A DNA stretch of 53,749 nucleotides from Patiriisocius sp. (GCA_047624725.1 JBLHQB010000001.1:1-53749); one strand, 5' to 3'. Numbered from the stretch's first letter, positions 5,728-51,099 are shown. Made by a program: numbers and translations. The notes: a model not told the origin generated them from the letters alone.

Positions 5728-5735
5728 GCGCTGCG

Positions 5736-8884: not shown

Positions 8885-8891
8885 CTACGAT

Positions 8892-9089: not shown

Positions 9090-9090
9090 A

Positions 9091-9203
9091 ACCACAACTA
9101 TTCTGAATTTGTCCTAATTTATAAAGAGACCACAGTCGATTATAAAAATGGAAATACCCTTGGGGTGCTGTCCCGATTTTTCCTCCAAGGAAAATCGCTG
9201 GAC
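9091..9203 (+). repeat. Family B element copy 2 (interrupted by about 50 nt)
   Basis: ACAACTATTCTGAATTT GTCCTAATTT [insert] GTCC-CGATTTTTCC-tcca-GGAAAATCG-ct-GGAC (hairpin 9170-9203). Confidence 0.7.
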
Positions 9204-9241
9204 GAAGGAAGTTGAAACAGCAGATACACTAAAAGCAAAAT

Positions 9242-12620: not shown

Positions 12621-12649
12621 TGGATTGCTTTGTGAACTCGCAAAGACGG
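12621..12649 (-). repeat. Family A unit, inverted orientation
   Basis: TGGATTGCtttgtgaaCTCGCAAAGACGG. Confidence 0.75.
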
Positions 12650-12680
12650 TGGGTAGTTATGTTGACTGGTGTCGAGGAGG

Positions 12681-12753: not shown

Positions 12754-12867
12754 CGTCTTTGCGAGCCTCAGCGTGAGAAGTGACTTAATGTCAGTTCGCA
12801 AGAGGTTTCCTGATATTTCTTTAGAAATATTGAAAACCTGAACAGTTTCTGTAAGAAAGCAATCTAG
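12754..12867 (+). repeat. Family A unit split by the short form of cargo X (114 nt)
   Basis: CGTCTTTGCGAGCCTCAGCG..hairpins 12777-12797, 12812-12831, 12846-12858..GCAATCtAG. Confidence 0.8.
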
Positions 12868-13059: not shown

Positions 13060-13135
13060 TGGAGCCACCTGTCAGATTCGAACTGACGACCTACTCATTA
13101 CAAGTGAGTTGCTCTACCAACTGAGCTAAGGTGGC
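13060..13135 (-). tRNA. tRNA-Thr (anticodon UGU), CCA encoded, discriminator U73
   Basis: Reverse complement GCCACCT-TA-GCTC-AGTTGGTA-GAGC-A-ACTCA-CTTGTAA-TGAGT-AGGTC-GTCAG-TTCGAAT-CTGAC-AGGTGGC-T-CCA. All four stems are perfect. Confidence 0.88.
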
Positions 13136-13258: not shown

Positions 13259-13498
13259 GTCTATTAGTGCTTCCTTTCGTCCAGCGATTCGCCCAAGGGT
13301 AGAACGAATCGGGACATAAATTCAGGATAGTCGCGACGCTCTTTCCTTCACTCATCTGGATCGCACCATTATTACAATTTTTCATAAAATTGCAAGCCCT
13401 TTGTCCATGTTTTGGATTCCAGTAGCAAACCACACATAACCCCGTAAAAAGCTTTATTTTACAACAAAAAAAGTATATACTGCGCCACACATAACCTT

Positions 13499-21709: not shown

Positions 21710-22079
21710 CGTCTTTGCGAGCGGAGCAAAGCAATCCAGGAATATAATATACAGATGGAAAAACAACCATGTGTCTATATTATGACAAACAAAAGAAACG
21801 GTACTTTGTATGCCGGTGTTACGAGTAATATTCATAAACGAGTCTCTGAACATGTTCAGGGTCAAGTAGAAGGTTTTACCAAGAGGTATCATCTCCACAG
21901 ATTGGTATATGTGGAAGCATGCGAAAATATGTTCCAAGCGATAGAACGCGAGAAGCAGATTAAAGCTGGATCCAGGAAGAAGAAATTAGAGCTTATTGAG
22001 AAAGAGAATCCATCGTGGAATGATTTATCTGAGATGATCTGACCCCTGGATTGCTTCGACTGAGGTCTCGCAAAGACGG
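21710..22079 (+). mobile_element. GIY-YIG nuclease gene bracketed by inverted family A units (370-bp putative mobile or domesticated element)
   Basis: Left unit 21710-21740 ends 14 nt before the ATG. The inverted right unit 22045-22079 starts 2 nt after the stop. Confidence 0.6.
21755..22042 (+). CDS. GIY-YIG (URI-domain) nuclease family protein, 95 aa
   Basis: PCVYIMTNKRNGTLYAGVTSNIHKRVSEH...EREKQIKAGSRKKK shows the GIY...YxG, Arg and Glu core pattern of small stand-alone GIY-YIG proteins. Confidence 0.82.
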   Translation: MEKQPCVYIMTNKRNGTLYAGVTSNIHKRVSEHVQGQVEGFTKRYHLHRLVYVEACENMFQAIEREKQIKAGSRKKKLELIEKENPSWNDLSEMI

Positions 22080-22126
22080 TGGGTAGTAAGCCATTCGTCT
22101 TTGCGAGCCTCAGCGCGGCAATCCAG
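22045..22126. repeat. Inverted pair of family A units (R then F) forming an 82-nt hairpin
   Basis: CCTGGATTGCttcgaCTGAGGtCTCGCAAAGACGG-16 nt-CGTCTTTGCGAGCCTCAGcgcgGCAATCCAG. Confidence 0.8.
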
Positions 22127-22136
22127 CAAGCGTAAG

Positions 22137-26036: not shown

Positions 26037-26135
26037 AAACAATGGTAAGGGCATAATTTGTCCTTACCACTTCTAATATTCTTGCGTACTGGTGTAGGTG
26101 AGAATATTAAGAGGTTATTAAAATCAACGTATTAT

Positions 26136-29100
26136 ATGTTTACAAAAAAAATTACAATCAATGTATTAGGTATCGCTATTTTAGTTATGCTTGCAGTAGG
26201 AGTTCCTGTGTCTATGACAGGAAATCACTCACTTGAAGTAAATGAAGTAGCTGCATTCGGTAGTTCATCAGGAGGCGGAAGTGGAAGTGGAAGTGGAGGA
26301 GGAAGTGGCTGTGGAAGCTGTGGTTCAGACCCAACACCAACACCAACACCAACACCAACACCAACACCAAGCCCTAAGCCACCAACGTGTAACTACCTAA
26401 AGGCTAATGGTAAGACTGGAACACTGACAGTCCCATACGGTGGAGCTAACGTATCACTAAACTGGTCGTCTTCAAAGGCAACAGGTGCTACGCTGACACC
26501 AACTGGTTCTGCAGTTTCTGTAAGTGGATCAAAGTCAGTAAACGTATCGTCAAATACAACGTTTACACTACGAGTTTCAAACTCAGACGGTGCACGTACC
26601 TGTAAGGTAGTAGTGAAAGTTGCTTCTGCAACACCACCATCATGTGACTCATTCACCGGAACACCTACATCACTTCCATACGGAGGCGGAACGGTAAACC
26701 TAAACTGGAAGACTACAAACGCTGACTCAGTATCAATCAACCAAGGAGTTGGTTCAGTGGTTGCTGACGGCTCAAAGCCTGTAAACGTATCAAATACAAT
26801 CACCTACACCCTGACAGCTAAAAAGGCTGGATACGCAAACGTGACCTGCCCAGTGAAGATCACGGTAAGGCCTGACGTTGCTGCACCATCATGTGACTCA
26901 TTCACCGGAACACCTACATCACTTCCATACGGAGGTGGAACAGTAAACTTAAACTGGTCTACATCAAACGCTGATTCAGTAGCAATCAACCAAGGAGTTG
27001 GTTCAGTAGTTGTTGACGGATCAAAGCCTGTAAACGTATCGAATACTATTACGTACACACTTACGGTAAAAAAAGCTGGGTTTGCAAACGCAACTTGCCC
27101 AGTGAAGATCACGGTAAGGCCTGACGTTGCTGCACCATCATGTGACTCATTCACCGGAACACCTACATCACTTCCATACGGAGGTGGAACAGTAAACTTA
27201 AACTGGTCTACATCAAACGCTGATTCAGTAGCAATCAACCAAGGAGTTGGTTCAGTAGTTGTTGACGGATCAAAGCCTGTAAACGTATCGAACACGATCA
27301 CCTACATACTTACTGCAAAGAAAGCTGGTTTCCCAACTGCTACCTGTCCTGTAACAATCACGGTAAAGCCAGACACAGACGCACCATCGTGTGATTCATT
27401 CTCTGGTACACCTACAACACTTCCATACGGAGGCGGAAACGTTGCACTGACATGGGCTACATCAAACGCTGACTCAGTATCAATCGATCAAGGTATTGGT
27501 GCAGTTAATGCTGATGATTCACGAGCTGAAACGGTAACTGACACAATTACATACACACTGACAGCTAAGAAAGCAGGATTCACTGACGCATTGTGTCCAG
27601 TGAAGATCACGGTGCTTCCGATGACAAACGTCCTTACGTGTAGTGATGTTTCATTCACTGCTTCAGATACACTTGTGAAGAAGGGAGATACGGTAAACCT
27701 TGCATGGGTATTCACTGGAAACGTAGCAAGTGGATCAATTGACCAGGGGATTGGACCGGTATCAAGTAACCAAAACCGTGATGTTGTAATCAATAATCAG
27801 ATTACATACACAATGACTATCAAGGATGCTACTACAGAAGTACAGTGTCCACTGACTATTAAGCTTGAATCTGACCCGGTATTCAGTTGTGCTGCTAACG
27901 TAAACTTTGACGCTGACGATACATCACTTCCAAGGGGTGGAGGAGATGTGGTCCTTACATGGAGTACTACTGATGTAGATTCAATTTCAATTCCTGGAGT
28001 TGTGTCAAACAATCTTAATGATTCAGAAACAGTAAATATTACTGCAGACCGAACGTACACCCTTACTGCAACAAAAGCTGGATTCGCAGGCATCCAATGT
28101 CCCGTTAAAATTGACGTTGCTAACGGTGGCGGAGGTGGTGGCGGAGGTTCATCAACTCCACGATGTGATCTTGATATCTCTGACGACAAGATCAAACTTG
28201 GAGAGGAAATCACTCTAGAGTGGGACACATCGCGAGCTACTGAAGTAGTTATCGAAGACAACCACGGTAACATCATCGTTACTACTGAAGATCTATCAAG
28301 TTCTGAAGCTAAGGACTTATACGACGGAGAAATTACACTAAAGCCTAAGAAGGATACAGAATACACAATTACTGCATCAAAGGGATCTAAGGATCGAGAA
28401 TGTGATGTAGAGGTTGAAGTAGAAAATAGTATTACGGTACTAGAATCACGAAATCAAGAACCACGAGTTGCTGGTATCTCACTGACACAAGTGCCATACA
28501 CAGGATTCGAGGCGGGACCAATGCTTACATTCTTCTTCTATGTACTACTCACACTATGGGGTCTGTTTGTAGCATATGTATTTGTTATCAAACGAGACAC
28601 ATTCGGCGGGGTATCTCTTGCAGGTGCACACACACACGTGCAGTACACTGACGTAAGTGTTGAAGCTGAAACTATTACAGAATCATCAGTTGCTGATGGA
28701 TATGTACAGGCAAGCACGCACGTTGCTGCTCCTGCAAATCTACCGGTTGCAACACCTGCAACAGTAGGATACGCATCAATGGTTTCAGAAGTTTCTGATG
28801 AAGAGACTGCAGAATCAATTGAAATGACTGAAATTGAAAACGCTGCTCACGCACAAAACATCCTTCTCTCAAGTGACGCAATGCGATTCTGCATGAACTG
28901 TACTGAGGAAGGAGCTGAACGTGTAGCAAAGATCAACGCAGTATTCGCTAAAGCTAAGGCAGCATACCCAAGTGAAGAAGGATGGGTAGCGCTTAACCTT
29001 GCTCGAGTAGAGTCTCTTATGGACAATGAAGAAGCTGCTGCAGAAGTAGCGACTCAGACAGAAGCAATTTCTGGAGGGTCACTCGCTGAAGCAATCGTAA

Positions 29101-29372
29101 CTGGTAACATCGTAGCGGCGTATCAAATGATCGACAACCGACCAATGATCGCACTAGCAGATGCTGCATCTGACCTTGATCTAGTATTCCGATCACGAAA
29201 GGGAGAAGAGGTGACTGTATCAACAGTACTTGCAGAAAACACAACTGATCTATCGCTAGAACAGTTAGTTGAAGCAATCACTGCACTTACAGGAGCACTT
29301 GACGGAACATACACAAGTGAAGGGGAAGCGGTTAAGATGGCGATTCTAAAAGCTGTAAAAGCTACAGCGTAA
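26136..29372 (+). CDS. Giant surface protein: N-terminal TM, G/S and PT linkers, about 9 Ig-like repeats, VPYTG motif + TM, about 250-aa C-terminal cytoplasmic domain
   Basis: MFTKKITINVLGIAILVMLAVGV. (CCAACA)n PT linker at 26331-26369. 83-aa repeats with paired Cys. VPYTG at 28491-28505 followed by MLTFFFYVLLTLWGLFVAYVFVIKR. Confidence 0.75.
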   Translation: MFTKKITINVLGIAILVMLAVGVPVSMTGNHSLEVNEVAAFGSSSGGGSGSGSGGGSGCGSCGSDPTPTPTPTPTPTPSPKPPTCNYLKANGKTGTLTVPYGGANVSLNWSSSKATGATLTPTGSAVSVSGSKSVNVSSNTTFTLRVSNSDGARTCKVVVKVASATPPSCDSFTGTPTSLPYGGGTVNLNWKTTNADSVSINQGVGSVVADGSKPVNVSNTITYTLTAKKAGYANVTCPVKITVRPDVAAPSCDSFTGTPTSLPYGGGTVNLNWSTSNADSVAINQGVGSVVVDGSKPVNVSNTITYTLTVKKAGFANATCPVKITVRPDVAAPSCDSFTGTPTSLPYGGGTVNLNWSTSNADSVAINQGVGSVVVDGSKPVNVSNTITYILTAKKAGFPTATCPVTITVKPDTDAPSCDSFSGTPTTLPYGGGNVALTWATSNADSVSIDQGIGAVNADDSRAETVTDTITYTLTAKKAGFTDALCPVKITVLPMTNVLTCSDVSFTASDTLVKKGDTVNLAWVFTGNVASGSIDQGIGPVSSNQNRDVVINNQITYTMTIKDATTEVQCPLTIKLESDPVFSCAANVNFDADDTSLPRGGGDVVLTWSTTDVDSISIPGVVSNNLNDSETVNITADRTYTLTATKAGFAGIQCPVKIDVANGGGGGGGGSSTPRCDLDISDDKIKLGEEITLEWDTSRATEVVIEDNHGNIIVTTEDLSSSEAKDLYDGEITLKPKKDTEYTITASKGSKDRECDVEVEVENSITVLESRNQEPRVAGISLTQVPYTGFEAGPMLTFFFYVLLTLWGLFVAYVFVIKRDTFGGVSLAGAHTHVQYTDVSVEAETITESSVADGYVQASTHVAAPANLPVATPATVGYASMVSEVSDEETAESIEMTEIENAAHAQNILLSSDAMRFCMNCTEEGAERVAKINAVFAKAKAAYPSEEGWVALNLARVESLMDNEEAAAEVATQTEAISGGSLAEAIVTGNIVAAYQMIDNRPMIALADAASDLDLVFRSRKGEEVTVSTVLAENTTDLSLEQLVEAITALTGALDGTYTSEGEAVKMAILKAVKATA
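26637..27632 (+). repeat. Four tandem 249-bp (83-aa) coding repeats
   Basis: Units start at 26637, 26886, 27135 and 27384 (CCATCATGTGACTCATTCACCGG..). Units 2 and 3 are identical over their first 165 nt or so. More diverged units flank them. Confidence 0.85.
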
Positions 29373-31600: not shown

Positions 31601-31619
31601 AATAGTAATTGGTTTGTAT

Positions 31620-31698
31620 CGTCTTTGCGAACGTCAGTGAAGCAATCCAGAGTTGGGTAACAAGGCTCTGGATCGCCGCATTAACACTCGCGAAGACA
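31620..31698. repeat. Gene-less inverted pair of family A units (F then R), 79-nt hairpin in the thrS 5' UTR
   Basis: CGTCTTTGCGAacgtcagtgaaGCAATCCAGAG-13 nt-CTCTGGATcGCcgcattaacaCTCGCGAAGAC. Confidence 0.8.
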
Positions 31699-35500: not shown

Positions 35501-35828
35501 CGATAGTCACCATCTTGATCAGGTTTTTGTAGCCAACATCATTTTTAGCCAAGAGTACCAGGCGTCCCCGTGGACGGTCCATCATTTCTTTGTCGTGCCG
35601 CGTTCGAGGTGCCATAAACGCATCAAGACCGATAATTGGTTTAATGCCACCCTTGTGACACTGAGAATAGAAGTCGATTGCCCCATAGAGCGCACCAGCA
35701 TCAGTAATCGCCATTGCATGCTGCCCGTCAGCCACAGCAGCCTTCACAAGCTCCTTGGGCGTCGGTACGGCGTTAAGAAGCGAATACATTGAGTGTGTAT
35801 GCAAGTGCACAAACTCAGCTTTCTCCAT
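32589..35828 (-). CDS. dnaE: DNA polymerase III alpha subunit
   Basis: PHP N-terminus FVHLHTHSMYSLL, GLLKFDFLG, FNKAHAASY, C-terminal OB fold. Start set at ATG 35828 (GGAGG 8 nt upstream), with 35852 as an alternative. The ORF-track start 35945 runs into a repeat. Confidence 0.92.
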   Translation of the reverse strand: MEKAEFVHLHTHSMYSLLNAVPTPKELVKAAVADGQHAMAITDAGALYGAIDFYSQCHKGGIKPIIGLDAFMAPRTRHDKEMMDRPRGRLVLLAKNDVGYKNLIKMVTIANTEGFYYRARIDHELIKDHCEGLICIIPSFAGETAQHLKNNDLEKAAASLAWYKDVFKENLYHEITHHPEILDHQELQEKIQTLAKEGDVPLVAAQDIYYMDKDDSVIRALMMKIQSGGVVDPDEAFAEDFSFATQEEMKEKFKDLPEAIANTVKIADQCHVEIVLGQEAWKFPDYKIASGKTPDDELKEMAYAGVLWRKHDMNDEVVKKRINYELEVIKTKGYSKYFLAVGDLLREARERGIYTTIRGSVAGSYATYVLGITNVDPLEYKLPFERFLNPERPSAPDVDMDFADNRRDEIIEYAKEKYGADKVAQIGTFGTMMARAAVKDVARALGHPYSTGDRISKLIPMGSQGFAMTIDRAMEIEKDLAKLYKQDSESRQVIDLAKRIEGRVRHMGVHAAGVVIAPEALTNYVPIQVDSKTGKHVTQYEMHSVGEDGVGLLKFDFLGIKNLAILADAVKRVKKIHDIDVDIEDIPVDDQKTFDMLANGETMGLFQLNGTGMTSFLKQLKPTTIHDINAMVALYRPGPMEMIPTYIERKHSPNMITFLDPRLEQILDRSYGVITYQDDVMMISIELAGYSWLDADKLRKAMGKKIPEVMEAEKAKLMDGFRDHGKLSQGVSDKLWEQIVPFAAYGFNKAHAASYGRVAYQTAYMKANYPSEYMSSVLTADAGDTEKISEIIHECERMDLEVLPPDINESFSPFTVVPAKNGVDAKIRFGLTTIKNFGEGIADAIILERKNGGDYTSLTDLLTRVHDKNLNKKSIEALIMTGALDRFEERGKMHANVDVLLAFNKEQVAGLAANQDSLFGGMDTAINELTLFDVDPASKDQKLIWEKELLGVYVSGHPLDKYEKDLLKRGTVTDARNGRKGQEVKTAGMIESVKELLTKKGDRMAFVKLVSLTDSIEMVAFPEVFQNNQDILIPGACVAVKGKLSIRNDEPGILIDKLKSLAPKEEVAQVEADSEEVQE

Positions 35829-35932
35829 AGGTTTTTCCTCCGATTCAGACATAGTGAGAGTAGTATAGCAAAAAGTCTTTGGAGAGTTATCTACAGGCAA
35901 CAACTTACTATCACTGTCGATAAATACGGTTC

Positions 35933-36003
35933 CCTGGATTGCCACGCTCGCGCTCGCAAAGACGGAGTGTTGTCTTTGCGAGACCCTGGTCGAAGCAATC
36001 CAG
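35933..36003. repeat. Inverted pair of family A units (R then F) between divergent dnaE and rnhB
   Basis: CCTGGATTGCcacgctcgcgCTCGCAAAGACGG-agtgt-tGTCTTTGCGAGaccctggtcgaaGCAATCCAG. Confidence 0.8.
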
Positions 36004-36029
36004 CGCCGTTACTGGTATATTTCTTACTA

Positions 36030-36683
36030 ATGAACAAATACACCATAGGTATAGACGAAGCTGGACGAGGTCCATTAGCAGGCCCTGTCTCTGTTGGCGT
36101 CGCATGCGTACCTGCTGACTTTAATTGGGATCAGATTCCTGGTGTAAACGATTCGAAGAAGCTTACCGAAAAGAAACGAGAAGAAATTTTTGATATTGCG
36201 AATAGTTTAGAAAAGGAAGGGAAGCTGCAAACTGAAGTGGTGATGGTTGCAGCGAACGTGATTGATGAGATCGGAATCGTACCATCGGTCACCAAAGCAA
36301 TGCATCGTGCACTACACAAGATTGAAGAAAATATGGCTAAAAGTTCGAGATCCGTACTCGAACTTGAGGATGTTCGAGATCCGTACTCGAACGTGTCGGT
36401 TAAGCTTGATGGGGGACTGAAGGCTCCTGATCATTATTCTAATCAGGAGACGATTGTTAAGGGTGATGCGAAGGAGAAGGTGATTGGTTTGGCATCTATT
36501 ATGGCGAAGGTGACACGGGATCGGTATATGGTGCAAAGGCATGCAGAGCCAGATTTTGCGGTATATATGTTTGATGCACATAAGGGGTATGGTACGAAAA
36601 AGCATCGTGAAGCTATCGCACAAAATGGTTTATCTGTAGAGCATCGTAGAAGCTATTGTAAACAAATAAGCAAAGGAACGTAG
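36030..36683 (+). CDS. rnhB: Ribonuclease HII
   Basis: MNKYTIGIDEAGRGPLAGPVSVG..DSKKL..ASIMAKVTRD..GYGT. Start moved to ATG 36030. The last 4 codons + stop lie inside the family B flank motif. Confidence 0.88.
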   Translation: MNKYTIGIDEAGRGPLAGPVSVGVACVPADFNWDQIPGVNDSKKLTEKKREEIFDIANSLEKEGKLQTEVVMVAANVIDEIGIVPSVTKAMHRALHKIEENMAKSSRSVLELEDVRDPYSNVSVKLDGGLKAPDHYSNQETIVKGDAKEKVIGLASIMAKVTRDRYMVQRHAEPDFAVYMFDAHKGYGTKKHREAIAQNGLSVEHRRSYCKQISKGT

Positions 36684-36740
36684 TGACTATTGCGAATTTA
36701 GTTCCCAATTCCCTCCTTTCTTAGAAGGAATTGCTGGAAC
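36674..36740 (+). repeat. Family B element copy 3
   Basis: AGGAACGTAGTGACTATTGCGAATTTA GTTCC-CAATTCC..GGAATTG-ct-GGAAC (hairpin 36701-36740). Confidence 0.8.
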
Positions 36741-36843
36741 ATCCTGATCTGCGTGGTAACTATTGCAATATTAAGGATATGCTATACCATTGCCCGTCCC
36801 GCTGGAATGTCCAGGTAGGAATCGTTATTTTGGGAGAGATACA

Positions 36844-38060: not shown

Positions 38061-38954
38061 ATGGCAAATCGACATTTATCGCGATCAATCGTTCTTCAAA
38101 CCCTCTTCGAGTGGGATTTAAATGATATAGACAAGAAGGGACTTATTGACGTTTTAAACCGTAACGTAGAAGAATTCGCGCCAAACAAGGCAGACAATCC
38201 TTTTATTGAGAAGCTCCTTGATGGGGTTATTGGCAAGCAGCCTGAATTAGATCAGGTTATTGAAAAAGCCGCACCTGAGTGGCCTATTGATCGTATCTCG
38301 CCAGTAGACCGAAACATTCTGCGTTTAGGACTCTACGAACTTTTGTTTGCTGATCGAAAAGAAGTGCCAGCTAAGGTTGCGATCAATGAAGCGATTGAGC
38401 TTGCGAAGCAATTTGGAGGAGATAATAGTAGTCGTTTTGTAAACGGGGTACTTGGCGCTGTCTATAAGGAAATTGGTGAACCAGGGAAGGAGGAGCAAGG
38501 AAAGAAAAAGAAAGCCGTACCATTTGATGAGATGCCTATCTTCCGACTCTCAGGAGCTGTTGTGTACGCTATGGAGGACGATGTGATGTACCTTGCACTC
38601 GTGCACGACATCTTCGGACACTGGACACTCTCTAAAGGAAAGATTGAAGAAGGAGAGACAGTAGAAGAAGGAGCGAAGCGTGAGCTTAAGGAAGAGATTG
38701 GATTAGATATTGAAATTGAAGCAGAACTTGGAAAGAACGAATACGTTGCGTCGCATCCAGAACTTGGAAAGATCCGTAAGCAGGTAACGTATTACTTGGC
38801 AGAAGCGCCGTACACAGAGCTGACGCTTGAGAACAAGGGAGGACTTGATGACGCGCAATGGTTTAAGGTTGCAGATATTTTGGATTTGAATTTCTACGAG
38901 GACATCTTACCTATCGTAACCAAAGCCATCACAATGTTAGTGGCCAAGAAATAA
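38061..38954 (+). CDS. nusB: NusB antitermination factor fused to a C-terminal NUDIX hydrolase domain
   Basis: Residues 1-135 are NusB-like (RSIVLQTLFEWDL..NEAIELAKQFGGDNSSRFVNGVLG). Residues 193-215 are a perfect Nudix box GKIEEGETVEEGAKRELKEEIGL (nt 38637-38705). Confidence 0.8.
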   Translation: MANRHLSRSIVLQTLFEWDLNDIDKKGLIDVLNRNVEEFAPNKADNPFIEKLLDGVIGKQPELDQVIEKAAPEWPIDRISPVDRNILRLGLYELLFADRKEVPAKVAINEAIELAKQFGGDNSSRFVNGVLGAVYKEIGEPGKEEQGKKKKAVPFDEMPIFRLSGAVVYAMEDDVMYLALVHDIFGHWTLSKGKIEEGETVEEGAKRELKEEIGLDIEIEAELGKNEYVASHPELGKIRKQVTYYLAEAPYTELTLENKGGLDDAQWFKVADILDLNFYEDILPIVTKAITMLVAKK

Positions 38955-39063
38955 CGTCATCTACTTTGTCAGACTACGAAAAAAGAGCCTTACCGTACGT
39001 TAAGTACGACTCGGCTCTTTTTTCTTGTCTTCCGCGTATCTAACGCTATTTCTTGGCCACTAA
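38937..39063. repeat. 20-bp inverted repeat enclosing family C terminator module copy 2
   Basis: TTAGTGGCCAAGAAATAACG (last 6 codons + stop of nusB) pairs with CGCTATTTCTTGGCCACTAA (39044-39063), 19/20. Confidence 0.8.
38979..39027 (+). terminator. Family C terminator-hairpin module, copy 2
   Basis: AAAAAAGAGCCttaCCGTACgttaaGTACGactcGGCTCTTTTTTCTT. Confidence 0.75.
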
Positions 39064-39230: not shown

Positions 39231-39941
39231 ATGACTGTAGAACGAAATATAGATGGAGACATGGTGAAGATTGAGGCACTGGTTGGCGTTACTTTTACTG
39301 ACAAGATGCATTTACTTACGGCGATTACACACCGTTCGTATCTGAACGAAAACCGGGACGCGAAGCAAGAGCACAACGAACGCCTGGAGTTTTTGGGTGA
39401 CGCAGTGCTTGAGTTGGTGGTTACTGATTTTCTCTTCAAGAAGTACCCCGAGAAGCCAGAAGGAGAGCTTACGGCAGTGCGTGCTGCACTTGTGAATACT
39501 ATTTCGCTTGCTGAGGCATCTACTAATCTTGAGATAAACGACTTCCTGCTCATGTCTAAAGGGGAAGCAAAAGACACAGGGCGAGCGCGTCAATACATTC
39601 TCGCAAATGTATTTGAAGCACTTATTGGTGCGTTGTACATGGACCAGGGGTACGATGCATCACAGAAATTTATCGCAGATCACTTGTTTGCAAAGACAGA
39701 CAAGATTGTTGAAAAGCGACTATGGCAAGATGCTAAAAGCCGTTTCCAGGAATTGGCACAAGAACATCACAGTGTAACGCCAACGTACGAGACGCTTGGA
39801 CAAGAAGGTCCAGACCACGATCGTGTGTTTACTGTTGGAGTATTCTTAGGAAAAGATAAGATTGGAGAAGGAAAGGGGTTGGCAAAACAAGAAGCTGAAC
39901 AGAAAGCTGCTGAAGATGCTATTACGAACAAAGCTTGGTAG
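39231..39941 (+). CDS. rnc: Ribonuclease III
   Basis: RNase III signature NERLEFLGDAVLELVV, plus a C-terminal dsRBD (GPDHDRVFTV..GKGLAKQEAEQKAA). Confidence 0.9.
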   Translation: MTVERNIDGDMVKIEALVGVTFTDKMHLLTAITHRSYLNENRDAKQEHNERLEFLGDAVLELVVTDFLFKKYPEKPEGELTAVRAALVNTISLAEASTNLEINDFLLMSKGEAKDTGRARQYILANVFEALIGALYMDQGYDASQKFIADHLFAKTDKIVEKRLWQDAKSRFQELAQEHHSVTPTYETLGQEGPDHDRVFTVGVFLGKDKIGEGKGLAKQEAEQKAAEDAITNKAW

Positions 39942-40539: not shown

Positions 40540-42813
40540 ATGTATCTCAAGCACTTAACAATTTCAGGATTCAAATCATTCGCCAAAAAAGGCGAGCTTG
40601 AATTTAGTGCACCTATTACTTCTATCGTTGGTCCTAACGGATCGGGCAAGAGTAACGTGGCTGAATCATTTCGCTTTGTGCTTGGAGAGCAATCGGTAAA
40701 AGGCATGCGTGCTAAGAAAGGAGCTGATCTTATCTTTAACGGTTCAGACAGCACCTCACGTGGTAACCGAGCCTCGGTATCTATTACGTTGGATAATACT
40801 AAGCGTGTATTCCCGATGGACTTTGATGAGATCATACTTGAACGGACCGTACATCGGGATGGACAAAATGAGTACCACATCAATAGCTCAAAGGTTCGCC
40901 TTAAGGACGTACAGGAACTTCTTTCTGCTGCTAACATTGGTCCAACTGGTCATCACATCATTTCGCAAGGAGAGGCTGATCGTATTCTTTCAGCAAGCCC
41001 AAAAGAACGTCGAGAGATGATCGAGGATGCTCTAGGACTAAAAGTATTTCAATATAAAAAAGTAGACGCTGAGAAGAAACTGAAGAAGACCCGAGAAAAT
41101 ATCGAACGCGTACAATCGTTGCGTCGCGAGGTTGCACCGCATCTTAAGTTCCTTGAGCGACAAGTAAAAAAGATTGAACGTGCGGTTTTACTGCGTGAAG
41201 AGCTCACTCGTGTATATAGCGAATACCTCAAGCGTGAGGACACGTATATCGCACATCACAGCGATCGTCTTCGTGGCGAGCGAGAAGAGCCAGCAAAGAA
41301 GCTTGAAGAGCTTAAGGAGCAGTTGGTGGAAGCAAAGAAAGTGCTTGCTGATAGTGAAGATGATGAGAAGGGTAATGGCGTGGTTGAGCTTGAAGAGAAG
41401 ATCTCAGCAGTGCGTACACAGCGCCAGGCGCTACTGCGTCAAAGTGGACAGCTTGAAGGGCAAGTAAGTTTCCTCAAGCGTCGTATTGAGCAGGCACACG
41501 ACAAGAGCACACAGAAGTCAGAAGCACCAATCCCAATGTCAGAGATGAAGAAGATTCTGCAGGTTGTGGAATCGTCAGTTGAGAAAGCGGTGAAGAGTGA
41601 TGATGTGAGTGCGTTACAACGGGCACTGTCTGACGTGATGCATACGCTTAAGAAGTTTGTACAAGGAGCATCGGGTGTTGTGGTTGTGAATACTGATACG
41701 GAAGAAAAAGAGTTGGTGGCTATTGAAAAGGAATTACATTCTTCCGAGAAAGAAATTACAGCGGTAGAAAAAGAAGAAGCAAAACTGACCGAGCAGTACG
41801 ATGAACTTAAGCGTTCAATTGAATCAGAATCGCAAGAGAGTCGAGAGGCTGAGCGTGAAGTGTTCCGTGTAGTAGGAGAGCAGCGTGATTGCGAGAATAC
41901 TATTGCGCGTATTGATGGCGAGCTGGGCGTACTTGAGCGCGATCGCAATGAATTCAAGCGAGAGTTGCAAGAAGCTGTGTCACTGATCGGAAGTGGTGCT
42001 TCACGGTACTTTAGTTTTGAAATTGTACTCGATGGGAAGGTAGTGAGTAATAAAGTTATCGCAGAAGAATCACGTGAGCTCCAGCGGGAACGACGACGAT
42101 CATTGGAGAAGATGAAGATCCGTCTTGAAGAACTTGGTGGTGCAAATTCAGATATTGAAAAAGAATATAAAGAAGTAAAAGAACGTGATGATTTTTTGGT
42201 GCACGAAGTTGCTGACCTTGAGGCGTCAGTAGAAAAGCTTGAGAAACTTATTACCGAGCTCGCGCTACAGCTTAACGAACAGTTCGTTGCAGGTATCGAT
42301 AAGATTGGCGCAGAGTTCAATCGATTTTTTGCACTTATGTTTGGCGGCGGGGAAGCGAAGCTGCTGCGAGTGAAGCCAAAGGTTCGTAAGAAGAAGTCTG
42401 ATGATGATCTAGAGGAAGATGCAGTAGCTGAGGAAGAGGATGAGGACGAGGTGGTTGAAGAAGGTGTAGATCTAGACGTAAAGCTCCCAAACAAGCGTGT
42501 GCGAGGTCTGGATATGCTCTCAGGAGGGGAGCGGGCGCTCACAAGTATCGCACTTATCTTCGCAATGAGTCAGATCAACCCACCACTGTTTATTATTCTT
42601 GACGAGACAGACGCAGCGCTCGACGAAGCAAACTCACGACGTTATGGTGACATGATCCAGGCGTTAGCGGAGAAGTCTCAGCTGATCCTTATCACACACA
42701 ACCGAGAGACCATGAGTCGCGCCGGTATCCTCTACGGAGTGACTATGGGGGGAGATGGGGTTTCGAAACTTCTATCTGTAAAGTTTGATGAGGCGGTTGC
42801 TGTTGCGAAATGA
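40540..42813 (+). CDS. smc: SMC-like chromosome segregation ATPase, short form (757 aa, no obvious hinge)
   Basis: MYLKHLTISGFKSF..GPNGSGKSN (Walker A), long E/K/R coiled coil, LSGGERALTSIAL (signature), FIILDETDAALD (Walker B). Confidence 0.78.
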   Translation: MYLKHLTISGFKSFAKKGELEFSAPITSIVGPNGSGKSNVAESFRFVLGEQSVKGMRAKKGADLIFNGSDSTSRGNRASVSITLDNTKRVFPMDFDEIILERTVHRDGQNEYHINSSKVRLKDVQELLSAANIGPTGHHIISQGEADRILSASPKERREMIEDALGLKVFQYKKVDAEKKLKKTRENIERVQSLRREVAPHLKFLERQVKKIERAVLLREELTRVYSEYLKREDTYIAHHSDRLRGEREEPAKKLEELKEQLVEAKKVLADSEDDEKGNGVVELEEKISAVRTQRQALLRQSGQLEGQVSFLKRRIEQAHDKSTQKSEAPIPMSEMKKILQVVESSVEKAVKSDDVSALQRALSDVMHTLKKFVQGASGVVVVNTDTEEKELVAIEKELHSSEKEITAVEKEEAKLTEQYDELKRSIESESQESREAEREVFRVVGEQRDCENTIARIDGELGVLERDRNEFKRELQEAVSLIGSGASRYFSFEIVLDGKVVSNKVIAEESRELQRERRRSLEKMKIRLEELGGANSDIEKEYKEVKERDDFLVHEVADLEASVEKLEKLITELALQLNEQFVAGIDKIGAEFNRFFALMFGGGEAKLLRVKPKVRKKKSDDDLEEDAVAEEEDEDEVVEEGVDLDVKLPNKRVRGLDMLSGGERALTSIALIFAMSQINPPLFIILDETDAALDEANSRRYGDMIQALAEKSQLILITHNRETMSRAGILYGVTMGGDGVSKLLSVKFDEAVAVAK

Positions 42814-42835
42814 CAAATGAGTAAATGTCCGAAGG

Positions 42836-42889
42836 GCATATTACGAATTTAGTTCCCGATTTTTTCTCCCTTGAGAAAATCGCTGGAAC
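42836..42889 (+). repeat. Family B element copy 4
   Basis: GCATATTACGAATTTA GTTCC-CGATTTTTTCTC-cctt-GAGAAAATCG-ct-GGAAC. Confidence 0.8.
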
Positions 42890-43056
42890 TCGAAGTATCA
42901 AATTACCATAGAGCATGTATAGCAGTACTTTGTTCCCGCCCCTTCCTTACAGGAACTGTACACTTTGTCAGTCTTTCCTTTGGAAAACACTAGGCAAAGT
43001 CTTGAGAAGTGACATTGAGTCACTTCTCACCTAGGGCAAATCGCTGGAACTCGAAG
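42877..43056 (+). repeat. 19-nt direct repeat pair flanking two more module-like hairpins
   Basis: AAATCGCTGGAACTCGAAG occurs at 42877-42895 and 43038-43056. Between them are GTTCC..GGAAC (42931-42955) and GAGAAGTGAC-attga-GTCACTTCTC (43004-43028, cf. hairpin 1 of cargo X). Confidence 0.7.
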
Positions 43057-43099
43057 CTCTGAGTATCACAAAACATAGCTATCAGTTTTGTTTGTCATT

Positions 43100-43145
43100 T
43101 AGAAAAAGAAAGAACCTGCGATTATATAAATATATTCGCAGGTTC
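43100..43145 (-). terminator. Rho-independent terminator of ORF 43160-43435
   Basis: Minus strand reads GAACCTGCGA-14 nt-TCGCAGGTTC + TTTCTTTTT. Confidence 0.65.
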
Positions 43146-44577: not shown

Positions 44578-46587
44578 TTATTTTTCGCGGTCTGACGAAG
44601 AAATACGCTTGTTTGAGAGTACAAGACTAAAGTCGAGTTGCCGTTCTTCTAGGTCAGCACGCATCAGCTTAACTCGTACTGCTTGACCAAGAGTATATGT
44701 CGAACCTGTCTTGTCTCCCTTGATTCGATACTTATCAGCTTCGTGCTTGAAGTAGTCTCCCTTGATACTTCCAAGGCGCACCATTCCATCTGCCATTGAT
44801 TTCTTTTCCTGTACGTAAATACCCCAGTCAGTTACACCGGTGATGATTCCATCAAATTCCTCACCAACCTTGTCGAGCATAAACTCAACCTGCTTGTACT
44901 TAATAGAGTTACGTTCAGCTCGCACTGCGAATCCTTCTCGGTCAGATGAGTGTGTTGCGGTCTTTTCGATCTTCATCATTTCCTTAGGTCCGATGAATGT
45001 TCCATCAAGATGCTTTCGAAGCATTCGGTGGGCGAGTAAGTCTGGATATCGACGGATCGGAGACGTGAAGTGTGAGTAGTGCTTGAACGCAAGACCGAAG
45101 TGTCCAATGTTTTTAGTACTGTAGATAGCTTTTGCCATTGAGCGGATTGTTGCAACCTTAAGCAGATCCTCTTCAGGGGAACCTTCGACATCCTTAAGTA
45201 GCTTGTTAATTGTTTTTGCATCAACCGTTCCGTCAGTAACTTTAAATTCGTAGCCAAGTGCGTGCACAAAGATGGCCAGCGCTTCAATACGATCAGGATC
45301 AGGTGCGTCGTGAATACGATAGATGAACGCAGTGTCATTACCCGCTTTCTTGCAGATTTTTTCCACCTGTTCAGATACTTTCATGTTTGCAAGAAGCATA
45401 AAGTCTTCAATCATCATCATTGTTTCAATACGAATCTTCGCAACCACATCAATAGGCACACCTGCATCATCGAGCACGAACTTTACCTCTGGTTGTTCAA
45501 ATGCAATAGCACCATTCTTGTATCGGTCCTTTCGTAGCATTCGTCCAAGCGTCATCATGACGTTTAGAGCATCAAGATTGTCGCCACTTTGTGTATCAAT
45601 AACCTCTTGTGCTTCTTGGTAACTAAACCGACGATTAGAGTGAATGATGGTCTGTCCGTACCATTCGCCCACTACTTCCGCGTTAGGGTTCATCTCAAAC
45701 ACTGCAGAGAACGCCAGACGGTCTTCTTCGGGTCGCAACGAACACAGGTCGTTTGAAAGTACTTCAGGAAGCATTGGAATCACACGGTCAACGAGGTAGA
45801 TAGATGTCGCACGCTTCTGTGCTTCAATATCAATAATGCCACTTTCTTCTACGTAGTGTGATACGTCAGCGATGTGGATACCAATTTCGTAGTTACCGTT
45901 TTCAAGTTTCTTGTATGAAAGAGCATCATCAAAGTCCTTTGCGTCAGCAGGATCAATAGTCATTGTCGTTGTGTCCCGCATATCGCGGCGCGTTGGATTT
46001 TCACCCTTAGTGTTTTCAATTGCAGTGGCAAAGATTTCATCCTGTCGTTCATAGAGTGCTTGTCCTGCCTTTGAGATTTCTTCAGGGAAGTTCTCAGAAA
46101 AACCTCCAGAACGAATGATCGCCTGCATTTCAGTTTCATGATCACCAGCTTTACCAAGTGTTTCAATAATTTTCCCAACAGGGTCAGTGTGCGGAGATGT
46201 CCATGACGCAATTTCAGCTACTACTTTCATTCCCTCATCAAGCTCAGTTGATTCCGGAAGAATAGGTCGCACGTGAATTCGATGATTATCAGGTTGGATA
46301 TACCGTACTGCTTTACCAGCTCCTGCTGGTTTTACCGTTCCGACAAATTCTTTGTGTACAGACTCAAGCACTTCAAGTACTTTAGCTTCTTGGCGTTTTC
46401 CTCCTACCTTTGGAAACTCTTCAACTTTCACCGTGTCACCATCAAGTGCAAAGCCAAGGTTCGCTGTTTCAATCAGGAGATCCTCTTGATCTTCAGCCTG
46501 ATCAGGTCGAATAAAAAAGCCGATCCCTTTACCTCGAATCGCAATAGTTCCTTCAAATATGTTGTTGTTTTCGTTAATTTCAGTCAT
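44578..46587 (-). CDS. rnr: Ribonuclease R (RNase II/R family exoribonuclease)
   Basis: RNB-domain signature HFGLAFKHYSHFTSPIRRYPDLLAHR, DPADAKDFDDAL, C-terminal S1 domain (GIITGVTDWGIYVQ). Start set at ATG 46587. Confidence 0.9.
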   Translation of the reverse strand: MTEINENNNIFEGTIAIRGKGIGFFIRPDQAEDQEDLLIETANLGFALDGDTVKVEEFPKVGGKRQEAKVLEVLESVHKEFVGTVKPAGAGKAVRYIQPDNHRIHVRPILPESTELDEGMKVVAEIASWTSPHTDPVGKIIETLGKAGDHETEMQAIIRSGGFSENFPEEISKAGQALYERQDEIFATAIENTKGENPTRRDMRDTTTMTIDPADAKDFDDALSYKKLENGNYEIGIHIADVSHYVEESGIIDIEAQKRATSIYLVDRVIPMLPEVLSNDLCSLRPEEDRLAFSAVFEMNPNAEVVGEWYGQTIIHSNRRFSYQEAQEVIDTQSGDNLDALNVMMTLGRMLRKDRYKNGAIAFEQPEVKFVLDDAGVPIDVVAKIRIETMMMIEDFMLLANMKVSEQVEKICKKAGNDTAFIYRIHDAPDPDRIEALAIFVHALGYEFKVTDGTVDAKTINKLLKDVEGSPEEDLLKVATIRSMAKAIYSTKNIGHFGLAFKHYSHFTSPIRRYPDLLAHRMLRKHLDGTFIGPKEMMKIEKTATHSSDREGFAVRAERNSIKYKQVEFMLDKVGEEFDGIITGVTDWGIYVQEKKSMADGMVRLGSIKGDYFKHEADKYRIKGDKTGSTYTLGQAVRVKLMRADLEERQLDFSLVLSNKRISSSDREK

Positions 46588-46672
46588 ATATATGTACGGC
46601 GCATAGTAGCATTGACGCAGGGTAAAAGCCATAGTATGTTTGATTTAGATTCAGTGCAACAAAGGAAAGAAA

Positions 46673-47154: not shown

Positions 47155-47610
47155 ATGTTAATGATGAGATTACAACGAGTCGGCCGCAAAAACGATCCTA
47201 GTTATCGTATTGTGGTGACTGATAAGCGTACTGGCCCAAAGAGCAACAAGCATGTAGCAATCATCGGATCTTACAATCCGAAGATGAGTCACATTCAGCT
47301 TGATGTGGATGCGGCTAAGGACTGGCTTTCAAAGGGTGTGCAGCCTTCAGATACCGTGCACAACATTCTCGTCGGACAAAAAGTGATTGATGCGAAAAAG
47401 GTAAACCCTCTTCCAAAGAAATCACCTATTGTTGACGAAGAAGCAGTTGCAAAGGCAGCTGAAGAAAAGGCGGCAGCTGAAGAAGCAGCTAAAGCTGAAG
47501 AAGCTGCTAAGGCGGAAGCTGAAGCGTCGACTGAAGAAGAAGTTTCTACAGAAGAAGTTGTAGAAACTGAGGAAGCTCCTGTAGAGGAGGCACCTGCAGA
47601 GGATAAATAA
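47155..47610 (+). CDS. rpsP: 30S ribosomal protein S16 with A/E/K-rich C-terminal tail
   Basis: MLMMRLQRVGRKNDPSYRIVVTDKR..IGSYNP...AKDWLSKGVQPSDTV. Confidence 0.9.
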   Translation: MLMMRLQRVGRKNDPSYRIVVTDKRTGPKSNKHVAIIGSYNPKMSHIQLDVDAAKDWLSKGVQPSDTVHNILVGQKVIDAKKVNPLPKKSPIVDEEAVAKAAEEKAAAEEAAKAEEAAKAEAEASTEEEVSTEEVVETEEAPVEEAPAEDK

Positions 47611-47678
47611 GCAAAGGAGTGTAACGACTATTGCGCATTTATGTCCCGATTTTTTCTCCCTTGAGAAAATCGCTGGAC
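47611..47678 (+). repeat. Family B element copy 5
   Basis: GCAAAGGAGTGTAACGACTATTGCGCATTTAT GTCC-CGATTTTTTCTC-cctt-GAGAAAATCG-ct-GGAC, directly after the rpsP stop. Confidence 0.8.
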
Positions 47679-47700
47679 CAAGTGTACAGGTCTCGCTCTG

Positions 47701-47735
47701 CAACAGCCCTACGTGCTCTGCACGTAGGGCTGTTG
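47701..47735. other. Perfect 15-bp hairpin between rpsP and khpA
   Basis: CAACAGCCCTACGTG-ctctg-CACGTAGGGCTGTTG. Confidence 0.7.
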
Positions 47736-47799
47736 ACGTATACGACAACCTTACGTACTATTGGTACTAGCAACACAATGTGTGTCCGCTTATCAGCCG

Positions 47800-47821
47800 A
47801 ACGTATGACACCATACGTTTT
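47800..47821 (+). terminator. Small terminator-like hairpin upstream of khpA
   Basis: AACGTATG-acac-CATACGTT + TT. Confidence 0.35.
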
Positions 47822-47835
47822 AGTTCCAAACGCAT

Positions 47836-48219
47836 ATGCAAGAAGATCAGCAATTTCTAGAATCCGTCGTAAAGGCACTGGTAGATAATCCAGACAGCGT
47901 AAATGTAAACCGAACTGTAGACGAAATGGGTGTACTTCTGACACTCGACGTACACGCAGATGACATGGGTAAAATCATCGGACGAAGTGGAAACACTGCA
48001 AAAGCAATCCGAACACTCTTACGAGTTGTGGGAATGAAAAATGACGCACGAGTAAACCTCAAGATCAATGAGCCAGAAGGGGGGCGTGTAGTAACCGAAG
48101 ATCCAACTGAAGCAGGAGGAACAGATGATGACATGGGAGAAGCGATGAGTAGTGGAGGAGATGAGATAAGTGCAGAGCCTAAATCGCTCGACGACGCTAT
48201 CGACGATCTCAAAATCTAA
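47836..48219 (+). CDS. khpA: KH-domain RNA-binding protein (KhpA/YlqC family) with acidic C-terminal extension
   Basis: LVDNPDSVNV..DDMGKIIGRSGNTAKAIRTLLRVVG, and position downstream of rpsP. Confidence 0.8.
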   Translation: MQEDQQFLESVVKALVDNPDSVNVNRTVDEMGVLLTLDVHADDMGKIIGRSGNTAKAIRTLLRVVGMKNDARVNLKINEPEGGRVVTEDPTEAGGTDDDMGEAMSSGGDEISAEPKSLDDAIDDLKI

Positions 48220-48336
48220 ATTAACTGGCAAATTTCTTTGTCAGGCTACGAGAAAAAGAGCCTCACCGTACAGTAAGTACGGCTCGGCTCTTTTTTCTTG
48301 CCTTCCGCGAACTTCACTCAGTTAATTTAGATTTTG
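48210..48336. repeat. Perfect 18-bp inverted repeat enclosing family C terminator module copy 3
   Basis: CAAAATCTAAATTAACTG (48210-48227, includes the khpA stop codon) pairs with CAGTTAATTTAGATTTTG (48319-48336). Confidence 0.85.
48253..48300 (+). terminator. Family C terminator-hairpin module, copy 3
   Basis: AAAAAGAGCCtcaCCGTACagtaaGTACGGctcGGCTCTTTTTTCTT. Confidence 0.75.
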
Positions 48337-48407
48337 GTGCATGGTATTACAGATTAATACTGAGAGTGGAAAACATAAACCTTTCGATATATCGAAAGGT
48401 TTGTATT

Positions 48408-48570
48408 CGTCTTTGCGTGAGAAAGTGTTTGCACACTTTCGCAAGTGGTTTAGGAAAATAAAGAACGTAGTGATTATATTTTCTTTATGCGGAGCAACGC
48501 GATAGTGCCTGCTATGTAAATAGCGACAACCTGAACAGCTTCTGTAAGAAGCGGAAGCGTGGCAATCCAG
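48408..48570 (+). repeat. Family A unit split by the long form of cargo X (163 nt)
   Basis: CGTCTTTGCG..hairpins 48421-48440, 48511-48524, 48539-48551..GCAATCCAG. The 57-nt internal segment 48451-48507 is 56/57 identical to 5886-5942. Confidence 0.8.
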
Positions 48571-48634
48571 TGTCAGCGCAGTGTGATGTCTTAATACTAC
48601 GGTTAACCGTAGTATTGAGTAGCCTTTTTATTTT

Positions 48635-49129
48635 ATGCTAGTATTCATTGATATGGCTCGTATGGATGATTCACTTCTTGTAACTGATTTTGATAATAAA
48701 CTCAATGGACCTATTAACTTTATTGAAAATAGATTTCATTATTTGTCACCCTTTTCTGCGCATGAGGTTGTTTTAGCTGGTGTAGTGTATAAAACTGCCG
48801 AACATGCCTACCAGGCATTGCGAATGAAGGCTGAGCATCGTGACCGGATTACGGTGACTACCAGTCCACTGGCTGCATGGCGAGAGGCACAGCATTGCAA
48901 GAAGGAAGGTTTGGTTGATCCAAGGCACGACAAGGATGATTTGATGGAAGAAATTTTTCGAGCCAAACTTGATCAACACCAAGATATCGAAGATGTCCTG
49001 CGAGAATCAGGAGACCGGGAATTACGTAAGGTGTATGACACTGATTATTATTGGGGTACAGGGGCAGATGGATCAGGTGAAAACATGATGGGGAAGCTCT
49101 GGATGAAGTTAAGAGGGGAATTAGAATAA
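48635..49129 (+). CDS. NADAR-family (DUF1768/YbiA-like) protein
   Basis: FHYLSPFSAHEVVLAGVVYKTAEHAYQALRM and DYYWGTGADGSGENMMGKLWMKLR match the NADAR pattern. Confidence 0.72.
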   Translation: MLVFIDMARMDDSLLVTDFDNKLNGPINFIENRFHYLSPFSAHEVVLAGVVYKTAEHAYQALRMKAEHRDRITVTTSPLAAWREAQHCKKEGLVDPRHDKDDLMEEIFRAKLDQHQDIEDVLRESGDRELRKVYDTDYYWGTGADGSGENMMGKLWMKLRGELE

Positions 49130-50812: not shown

Positions 50813-51029
50813 CCTAACCTCCTATAGGATTGTTTATACTGTGGTCTGATTGCTACGGTATCACGCAGTAGGCCGCATTGCAATATACTCCAAAGCCTGT
50901 ATAATAGCGCCCACTAACGCATTTTCTATTCGAGTGAGTCACGGTTGCGACAAGAATAGCGGAGGTTCGGACAATTACACGGGTGGGAGTCTGTGGTCCA
51001 AAAAAAACAACACTTTTCATTAGAAAACC

Positions 51030-51099
51030 AAGGAACGAAGTGACTATGGTTCTCTTATGCGGAGTATATAAAAACAAGGTATGTAATGACTATGTTTTT
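51030..51099 (+). repeat. Two adjacent hairpins displaying the GTAGTGAYTAT-type loop motif
   Basis: AAGGAAC-gaagtgactatg-GTTCTCTT ATGCGGAG.. and AAAAAC-aaggtatgtaatgactat-GTTTTT. ATGCGGAG is also shared with the cargo X long-form insert. Confidence 0.6.

Follow-up and report, generated by a model that had tools for sequence, protein, structure and literature searches.

A two-hairpin structured repeat scattered through the intergenic DNA of many Patescibacteria (CPR) genomes

The closest described systems to the repeat reported here are the REP/BIME elements (with the REPINs) of Enterobacteria and Pseudomonas, which are imperfect palindromes, short, high-copy, strictly extragenic, non-autonomous and present in either orientation, in which mismatches and bulges give the strands an asymmetry, and which are transcribed in UTRs, where they can affect mRNA stability. 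The BOX element of Streptococcus pneumoniae and the ERIC/IRU element of Enterobacteria, each about 100 nt long, are interspersed between genes in both orientations, are predicted to form a stable RNA fold and bring no transposase of their own. Correia elements of Neisseria, other MITEs and the Rickettsia palindromic elements are small and non-autonomous, come and go from one relative to another, and can alter the ends of genes. Two further systems involve a folded single strand: the PATEs of the IS200/IS605 group, which lack terminal inverted repeats and target duplication, carry strand-specific hairpins near both ends and need the folded single strand for their activity, and the attC sites of integrons, which fold in a strand-specific way, have extrahelical bases and a variable middle between conserved ends, and lie directly after ORFs. 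The repeat family described below, Family B, resembles the respective systems in such traits, and differs from each of them in ways that are taken up after its anatomy.

Family B was noticed in a 53,749-nt stretch of DNA assigned to Patiriisocius sp. (GCA_047624725.1 JBLHQB010000001.1:1-53749), hereafter the window, in which a sequence-only reading had pointed to five copies of a bulged hairpin, at 5691-5727, 9170-9203, 36701-36740, 42852-42889 and 47643-47678. All five hairpins are confirmed as members of a genuine repeat family whose changes are compensatory. As repeat finding and pattern scans show, similarity among the window copies runs about 40 nt 5' of each hairpin. The unit is a discrete, sharply bounded element of about 82 nt made of two neighbouring hairpins, H1 followed directly by H2, where H2 is the hairpin already reported and H1 is the region that had been called a conserved 5' flank; conserved it is, but as a covarying hairpin and not as a flank. 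A covariance model of the unit (CM R1) was built from relatives, together with a second model (R2) of H1 only. In the window CM R1 finds five full copies and one partial copy, with full-unit matches of 85-87 bits at 5648-5729, 36659-36741, 42810-42890 and 47600-47680, and a degenerate core pattern is expected to give no chance matches in the shuffled window. One full copy lies on the minus strand (13358-13277), so the earlier statement that all copies are in the + orientation, which missed this sixth copy, does not hold; the fragment at 43024-43050 had been missed too. The copies and their parts are as follows.

5652-5727, + strand: copy 1, with H1 at 5652-5689 and H2 at 5691-5727 (CM R1 86.8 bits; R2 57.8 bits)
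9001-9203, + strand: copy 2, rearranged (CM R1 30.3 bits over 9141-9205, the H2 half only)
9001-9012 and 9097-9110, + strand: H1 outer 5' strand and H1 3' strand of copy 2, from the sequence
9013-9096, + strand: motif X module of about 85 nt nested in copy 2, where it splits H1, from the sequence
9111-9120, 9121-9169 and 9170-9203, + strand: aborted H2 5' arm, insertion and intact H2 of copy 2, from the sequence
13279-13354 (unit 13358-13277), - strand: copy 6, with H1 at 13354-13317 and H2 at 13315-13279 (CM R1 85.7 bits)
36663-36740, + strand: copy 3, with H1 at 36663-36700 and H2 at 36701-36740 (CM R1 86.5 bits)
42814-42889, + strand: copy 4, with H1 at 42814-42851 and H2 at 42852-42889 (CM R1 87.1 bits)
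43024-43050, + strand: fragment, the 3' half of an H2, CCTAGGGCAAATCGCTGGAAC (repeat families D9 and D18)
47604-47678, + strand: copy 5, with H1 at 47604-47641 and H2 at 47643-47678 (CM R1 85.4 bits; fold z = -4.3)

All six copies are intergenic, which in 54 kb comes to roughly one ~82-nt unit per 9 kb, among genes that are housekeeping genes only. Each copy taken alone folds into H1 and H2, with z between -2.7 and -5.3; the MFE fold of copy 1 is the same two hairpins (z = -3.6). The TAG of the ORF at 4231-5634 lies 17 nt before copy 1, and a terminator-shaped hairpin (5736-5792) comes after the copy. Copy 2 is flanked by rpmE (L31) and a release-factor gene (Pfam L31, PCRF/RF-1), and the insertion of about 50 nt with a duplicated 5' arm that had been read in it is borne out (9111-9120 vs 9170-9179). 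The final codons and the stop of the rnhB ORF (35793-36683, Pfam RNase_HII), at 36669-36683, lie within H1 of copy 3. Copy 4, whose H1 has the all-Watson-Crick tip variant, begins 1 nt past the stop codon of an smc-like gene and shares an identical 3' flank, TCGAAG, with the fragment at 43024-43050, which is a remnant or recombinant piece of an H2 copy. In copy 5 the stop codon of rpsP (S16, Pfam S16), the TAA at 47608-47610, occupies the UGA/UAA position of H1, and the KhpA gene (Pfam KhpA) lies 3' of it, from 47836. Copy 6 sits in a divergent region, downstream of a promoter-like TTGCAA-N16-TAATAAT and upstream of a tRNA-like sequence and tRNA-Thr (13060-13135), and its H2 stem has been rewritten to CGAUUCGUUC/GGGCGAAUCG, with two U.G pairs.

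Some further observations concern the window itself. The tRNA-like sequence between copy 6 and tRNA-Thr(UGU), at 13238-13150 on the minus strand, is called by neither ARAGORN nor Rfam; it opens with an acceptor-like 5' end plus a D-arm (GCCACCTTAGCTCAGTTGGTAGAGA), continues through a long hairpin (TGAAATAGTCTGGGAGACTGTTTCA) and one more hairpin, and then reads AGGTAGC. An ORF of 1104 aa at 26058-29372 contains at least four tandem repeats of 249 nt (83 aa) with 64-90% identity, and one ORF at 38061-38954 fuses NusB and NUDIX hydrolase domains, with RNase III following at 39231-39941. Few window genes have a recognisable Shine-Dalgarno sequence (gene starts at 9242, 6563 and 48635, for example). 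A promoter-like TTGCAA-N16/17-TATAGT upstream of the L32 gene is kept in the window and in the related loci L116 and L118, and a TATAGT standing 6 nt before an ATG in L036 suggests leaderless mRNAs.

The fold of the unit can be described from its base upwards, using alignment A1, which holds 79 distinct copies. H1 opens with a basal helix of 5 A/U base pairs, UURAAU with AUUUA, whose first pair covaries (U-A 58, G-C 14, A-U 4 in the 79 sequences) and whose second is A-U in 47 and G.U in 31 of them. Above the base stands a tandem G.A/A.G formed from the invariant UGA...GA, then a middle helix of 5-6 bp with a bulged A and three strongly covarying pairs, then a Y.Y or G-C pair and a second, distal tandem G.A, which in an alternative form, that of window copy 4 for example, gives way to Watson-Crick pairs; at the top, under a GNA triloop or a GNRA tetraloop, the stem ends in two covarying pairs. 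H2 has the base GU(U)CC/GGA(A)C, a 2-nt CU bulge in its 3' strand, then one conserved C-G pair and one R-Y pair, and a variable upper stem of about 8 bp with a loop rich in pyrimidine. The bulge, which the sequence-only reading took to be invariant, is CU in the aligned set, where the search pattern partly forces it, but UU in L030, and L008 deviates; the "invariant" C-G pair above it is reversed to G-C in L116, L118 and L030. About 50 of the 82 positions are nearly invariant across the true copies among the matches listed, which come from about 50 assemblies, and beyond the unit, at both ends, no more than 3 nt separate its conserved sequence from background information content. Canonical H1 is nearly always coupled to H2 (about 90 of 94 H1 matches stand in full units), and the idea that H1 is a module of its own was rejected on this ground. 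Three H1-like hairpins of the window (5881-5932, 48446-48497, 51016-51057) are diverged relatives.

Covariation supports the two-hairpin fold. The seed pattern fixed 21 positions, and those columns cannot vary in the 79-sequence set; standard pairs fill 88% of the pair cells, against 29-48% when the partners are slid, double-sided changes occur at 18 pairs, and the covariation score is 0.38, against 0.14 for shuffled alignments, with none of 500 shuffles reaching the observed value. Both stem positions at which compensatory change had been noticed covary in the 79 sequences: the second stem position of H2 is G-C in 47, A-U in 30 and G.U in 2, and at the outer-stem position 53 sequences carry G-C and 19 carry U-A. 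The sequence-only reading had held that it would be undone if copies proved randomly oriented to genes and the covariation vanished in a larger alignment; the orientation is indeed nearly random, as shown below, but the covariation is stronger in the larger alignment. The fold is specific to one strand because G.U pairs are frequent (pair 6-43 is G.U in 31 of the 79 sequences and pair 59-78 is U.G in 32), and the sense strand is more stable than the antisense strand in 78 of 96 copies (p = 4e-11). Identical H2 variants are common to paralogous copies, such as window copies 4 and 5 or those of L034, L068 and L109 in one MAG, and also reappear in different genomes, each with several variants.

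Several assignments that parts of the unit might invite were ruled out. The AAUGA is not the stop of an upstream gene in a SECIS-like or recoding signal, as in-frame reading upstream of it mostly runs for a few codons and its bases pair in H1; there is no tiny ORF starting from the AUG in AAUUUAUGUCC, where many copies have ACG, AGU or CUG; and a kink-turn or box C/D motif does not fit, as the basal tandem G.A lies between helices with no bulge and the distal one is replaceable by Watson-Crick pairs.

Family B is scattered in the intergenic DNA of many Patescibacteria (CPR) genomes, and a genome of this kind is very probably the source of the window. Species-representative genomes scanned with AATTT-N1-4-TCCCRATT-N8-30-AATYGCTGGA gave at least 111 loci, and among the matches listed true copies stand at no fewer than about 78 loci in about 50 assemblies (about 80 copies). 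Nearly all of the assemblies with true copies among these matches are MAGs, labelled as Patescibacteria group, Paceibacterota/Parcubacteria, Kaiserbacteria, Nomurabacteria, Saccharibacteria or Elulimicrobium, although some of the "Saccharibacteria" labels are perhaps generic mappings and breadth across Patescibacteria is claimed loosely here. The few true-copy loci among the matches listed that are labelled Acidimicrobiales, Azotimanducaceae or "bacterium" may be mis-binned contigs. About 25 matches in Pelagibacteraceae are one conserved coding sequence and not Family B, about 8 further scan matches are due to chance, and a scan of viral contigs gave no Family B copies and two matches at chance level. 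In 545 kb of related loci CM R1 finds 103 matches, only one match was flagged as lying within an ORF, and the median intergenic length in the sampled Patescibacteria loci is about 60 nt. Rfam searched over the whole window at its gathering threshold returned tRNA only, the stretch around copy 5 (47560-48640), searched at E-values up to 10, yielded nothing on the element, and no such element is described in Rfam 15 or in the searchable literature on Patescibacteria/CPR repeats and RNA motifs. TIGR-Tas arrays, which are tandem arrays with box C/D features, were ruled out as its identity.

Copies are gained, lost and sometimes retained at orthologous sites. A metagenome scan with the smc-like protein gave syntenic relatives of 70-94% identity. 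At the smc 3' site L114 (80% amino-acid identity) and L118 have no element, the stop codon leading straight to a terminator, and L116 carries a different version, while the window has a composite insert of about 290 nt (42816-43104), absent in the closest relative, whose 5' end is copy 4. The element that follows rnhB in the window is missing at the 3' site of this gene in L116 and L117, where an ordinary terminator is found instead, and the window protein ends in ...YCKQISKGT* against ...YCKNLQML* in the element-free ortholog of L116; the element therefore supplies the last residues of the window rnhB product. The earlier claim that the repeat had remodelled this C-terminus, its last codons AGC AAA GGA ACG and the stop TAG lying inside the element, is thus upheld. 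In L118 a reversed copy lies upstream of rpmF (L32), between a terminator and a promoter, a place that is unoccupied in the window and in L116. The genes efp and rpsF, on the other hand, keep copies at their 5' ends in two genomes with 58-65% protein identity, and these copies show an in-situ compensatory change from G-C to A-U in H1, which suggests constraint or homogenisation rather than simple decay after insertion. In the close relatives L064 and L082, most of the difference between orthologous regions lies in the H2 tip and the modules after it. Nested or recombinant copies are present in the window itself (copy 2 and the fragment at 43024-43050), and in the three filled-versus-empty comparisons, whose flanks are 20-30% diverged, no target-site duplication is visible.

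By analogy with the systems set out at the start, we tentatively take Family B to be a non-autonomous structured repeat whose copy number is dynamic, comparable to REP/BIME or BOX. We place this reading a little short of an even chance, because the depth of conservation and the retained copies exceed what REP/BOX-type families have. Mobility would be the cause of the gains and losses. A conserved trans-acting factor would recognise the folded strand, either as RNA when the copy is transcribed or as ssDNA of the same strand, and this recognition would underlie the spread or retention of the unit; we infer such a factor because a strand-specific fold and about 50 nearly invariant bases are conserved. 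Effects on neighbouring genes are secondary: a copy behind a co-oriented gene becomes 3' UTR, and its 5' edge (UAA/UGA, and UAG in the H1 loop) often provides that gene's stop codon along with a few C-terminal residues, rnhB and rpsP being the window examples. No mechanism of mobilisation can be named because no terminal inverted repeats, target duplication or transposase-like ORF was found.

The points at which Family B departs from the known systems are specific. Unlike a REP, which is one palindrome of 20-40 nt, it consists of two different hairpins over 82 nt, it lacks the 5' GTAG head, and it is conserved across a class or phylum rather than a species or genus; its copies are nearly all singletons or tandem direct pairs, unlike the inverted doublets of REPINs, with one clear convergent pair in L027 (5634-5717 on the + strand with 5729-5798 on the - strand). 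In REP systems a RAYT (Y1 HUH) gene is flanked by repeats, and none was found among 553 ORFs from 78 element-centred loci. When these ORFs were clustered no recurrent non-housekeeping partner family emerged beside the copies, the top clusters being RNR, ABC ATPase, SecDF, EF-P, S6, sigma factor and signal peptidase. BOX is modular, and the window copies are likewise nested with or abut other repeat modules, but BOX and ERIC do not extend beyond a genus or family and their compensatory covariation is slight, whereas the association of H1 with H2 in Family B is tight and constant. In contrast to Correia elements, MITEs and the Rickettsia elements, no terminal inverted repeats or target duplication are visible (UURAAUGA... 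and ...GCUGGAC are not complementary, and each pairs within its own hairpin), and it is with the 5' edge alone that the unit overlaps the ends of genes. The two hairpins of Family B differ from each other in sequence and shape, unlike those of PATEs, the sampled loci have no Y1 transposase, and there is no conserved 5' target tetranucleotide, with at most 0.26 bits upstream of the first H1 pair. Finally, the RYYYAAC/GTTRRRY (R''/R') cores of attC are absent, the ends being GU(U)CC/GGA(A)C, and the neighbours rpsP, rnhB, smc, rpmE and prf stand in conserved synteny rather than in cassette arrays beside an integrase.

With about 50 of 82 positions near-invariant, Family B is conserved far more deeply than REP, BOX or MITE families are known to be, which argues for a host function. 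Family B could accordingly be a phylum-wide class of structured RNA whose host function is exerted through a conserved binding protein or RNase, a possibility that we regard as somewhat unlikely.

Less probable again is that the unit acts in cis as a host 3' UTR RNA, blocking 3' exonucleases, marking a processing site (for RNase III, for example) or providing a site of factor-dependent termination. Five of the six window copies do lie behind a co-oriented gene, about 16 of 57 co-oriented cases, rpsP included, have their stop codon in the H1 5' strand, inside UUAAAUGA, and several copies have a canonical terminator 20-60 nt downstream, which would place them inside the 3' UTR; the window also encodes RNase III (39231-39941) and an RNase II/R-type exonuclease (44578-46632), and the G.U pairs, GNRA loops and tandem G.A pairs are RNA-like. 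Against this, orientation is near random relative to genes. Context was scored with crude gene calls (ORFs of at least 90 aa), and of 80 copies with both neighbours called on this basis, tandem regions hold 39 co-oriented and 20 antisense ones, divergent regions 12 and convergent regions 9; for the copies of at least 75 bits in tandem regions the ratio is 26 co-oriented to 19 antisense. One third to two fifths of the tandem-region copies are thus antisense to both neighbours, and by score these are at least as intact. Of the regions that carry it, 72% are tandem, 17% divergent and 12% convergent (106 copies), close to the background of 71, 13 and 15%, so that divergent regions, which have no 3' end at all, carry it at the background rate, and the tie to the sense of the upstream gene that the sequence-only reading proposed is not supported. 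In close relatives an ordinary terminator stands where the window has its rnhB and smc copies, and the element is lacking. A cis role on the adjacent mRNA, whether as 3' stabiliser, processing site or terminator, is contradicted because orientation is nearly random, divergent regions are used equally and the element is absent at orthologous sites. The observation that these are not U-tract terminators was correct: no T-run follows H2, the 3' flank is not enriched in T, and the nearest terminator-like T-run is at least 14 nt away. An intrinsic terminator is ruled out by this lack of a U-tract, by the 20 of 59 tandem copies that are antisense and by the 12 copies in divergent regions.

It is also conceivable, though we consider it very unlikely, that the copies are independently expressed members of an sRNA family, with H1 and the H2 base as a constant scaffold and the upper stem and loop of H2 as the variable part, the pyrimidine-rich loop of which could pair with purine-rich targets or bind a protein. 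Sharp bounds, a tRNA-like size, strong RNA-type covariation and the recurrence of the same H2 variants across genomes, several to a genome, would suit such a family, and some copies stand just downstream of a terminator or promoter-like site, as copy 6 does. However, no conserved -35/-10 or other hexamers were found upstream of the element and no promoter-like match inside it, a terminator-like site follows within 150 nt in only 23 of 97 copies and is no commoner than upstream, and in about 27 of 96 copies the 5' edge abuts or overlaps a coding region, leaving no room for a promoter. The 3' edge overlaps a coding end in none of these 96 copies, and in about 9 cases the ATG of a divergent gene touches the 5' edge. 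A few copies lie upstream of tRNA or 16S genes, not above expectation. Co-oriented copies stand about 210 nt upstream of the 16S rRNA 5' end (AGAGTTTGATCCTAGCTCAG) in two assemblies (L018 566-647, L094 69-150), and others about 105-120 nt upstream of tRNA-Ser (L042, L051) and tRNA-Trp (L011).

The explanation we rate lowest is a host ssDNA signal for priming or single-strand initiation, recombination, or protection of DNA acquired by competence: the fold is strand-specific although its orientation is independent of neighbouring genes, the H1 tip GCGNAGC matches in sequence the d(GCGNAGC) class of unusually stable DNA mini-hairpins, and copies are slightly in excess on the G-rich strand (65 vs 41), but the very frequent G.U(T) pairs and the alternation of GNRA with a triloop look more like RNA, orientation with replication shows up only as a weak association with GC skew that does not exceed the one with gene orientation, and the window's one minus-strand copy goes with a minus-strand tRNA unit, against the skew.

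Family B may be one member of a larger repertoire of intergenic hairpins that includes motif X, the D5 family and the CUCGCAAAGACG family. An intergenic region that carries the element exceeds one that lacks it by about 240 nt, and copies therefore often travel with other repeat modules. Motif X is a second conserved structured repeat, at 5853-5994, 9013-9096, 12774-12858 and 48418-48551 and in L022 and L028, common to other Patescibacteria; it has the order GTGAGAA, hairpin AGTCTGGGAGACT, TTCGCAAGAGGTTGCCAGC, a hairpin and GCGACAACCTGAACAGCTTCTGTAAGAAG, is nested in the H1 tip of copy 2, and elsewhere itself contains a nested H1-like hairpin. A family of terminator-shaped hairpins (A-tract, stem, T-tract) is found at 5736-5792, 38980-39036, 48253-48309 and (8890-8925), with relatives in L014, L028, L035, L064, L069, L087, L104 and L109; its upper core is CACCGTAC...GTACGRCTCG, and it often lies 10-25 nt past a Family B copy. 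Another repeat family pairs CTCGCAAAGACG with its complement CGTCTTTGCGAG(CC...GCGGCAATCCAG), which suggests a long-range helix around variable inserts, at 1755-1790, 12637-12657 with 12754-12773, 22067-22130, 31619-31654, 35953-35973 and 48400-48410, the motif also being present in L099. A hairpin module (G)TTCC...CCTTCCTTACAGGAACTGT, at 42934-42958 and in L022, L034, L061, L082, L091, L109 and L110, is a compensatory variant of CTTCTTACAGAAGCTGT, which is the reverse complement of the end hairpin of motif X.

Read as a non-autonomous structured repeat, still our tentative preference, Family B means that tiny, gene-dense Patescibacteria genomes nevertheless tolerate or maintain structured units of about 82 nt, and its depth of conservation with compensatory variation, unusual for selfish repeats, points to a conserved recognition partner. 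It matters for annotation, since the element donates stop codons and C-terminal residues, abuts divergent starts and inflates intergenic regions, and it is perhaps usable as a lineage marker and a possible substrate for recombination. Were it instead an RNA class with a host function, it would be among the most abundant conserved RNA modules in Patescibacteria, with functions such as marking transcripts for processing, stability or export, or serving as an RNA- or ssDNA-templated mobile element of a new type that works through a core host enzyme.
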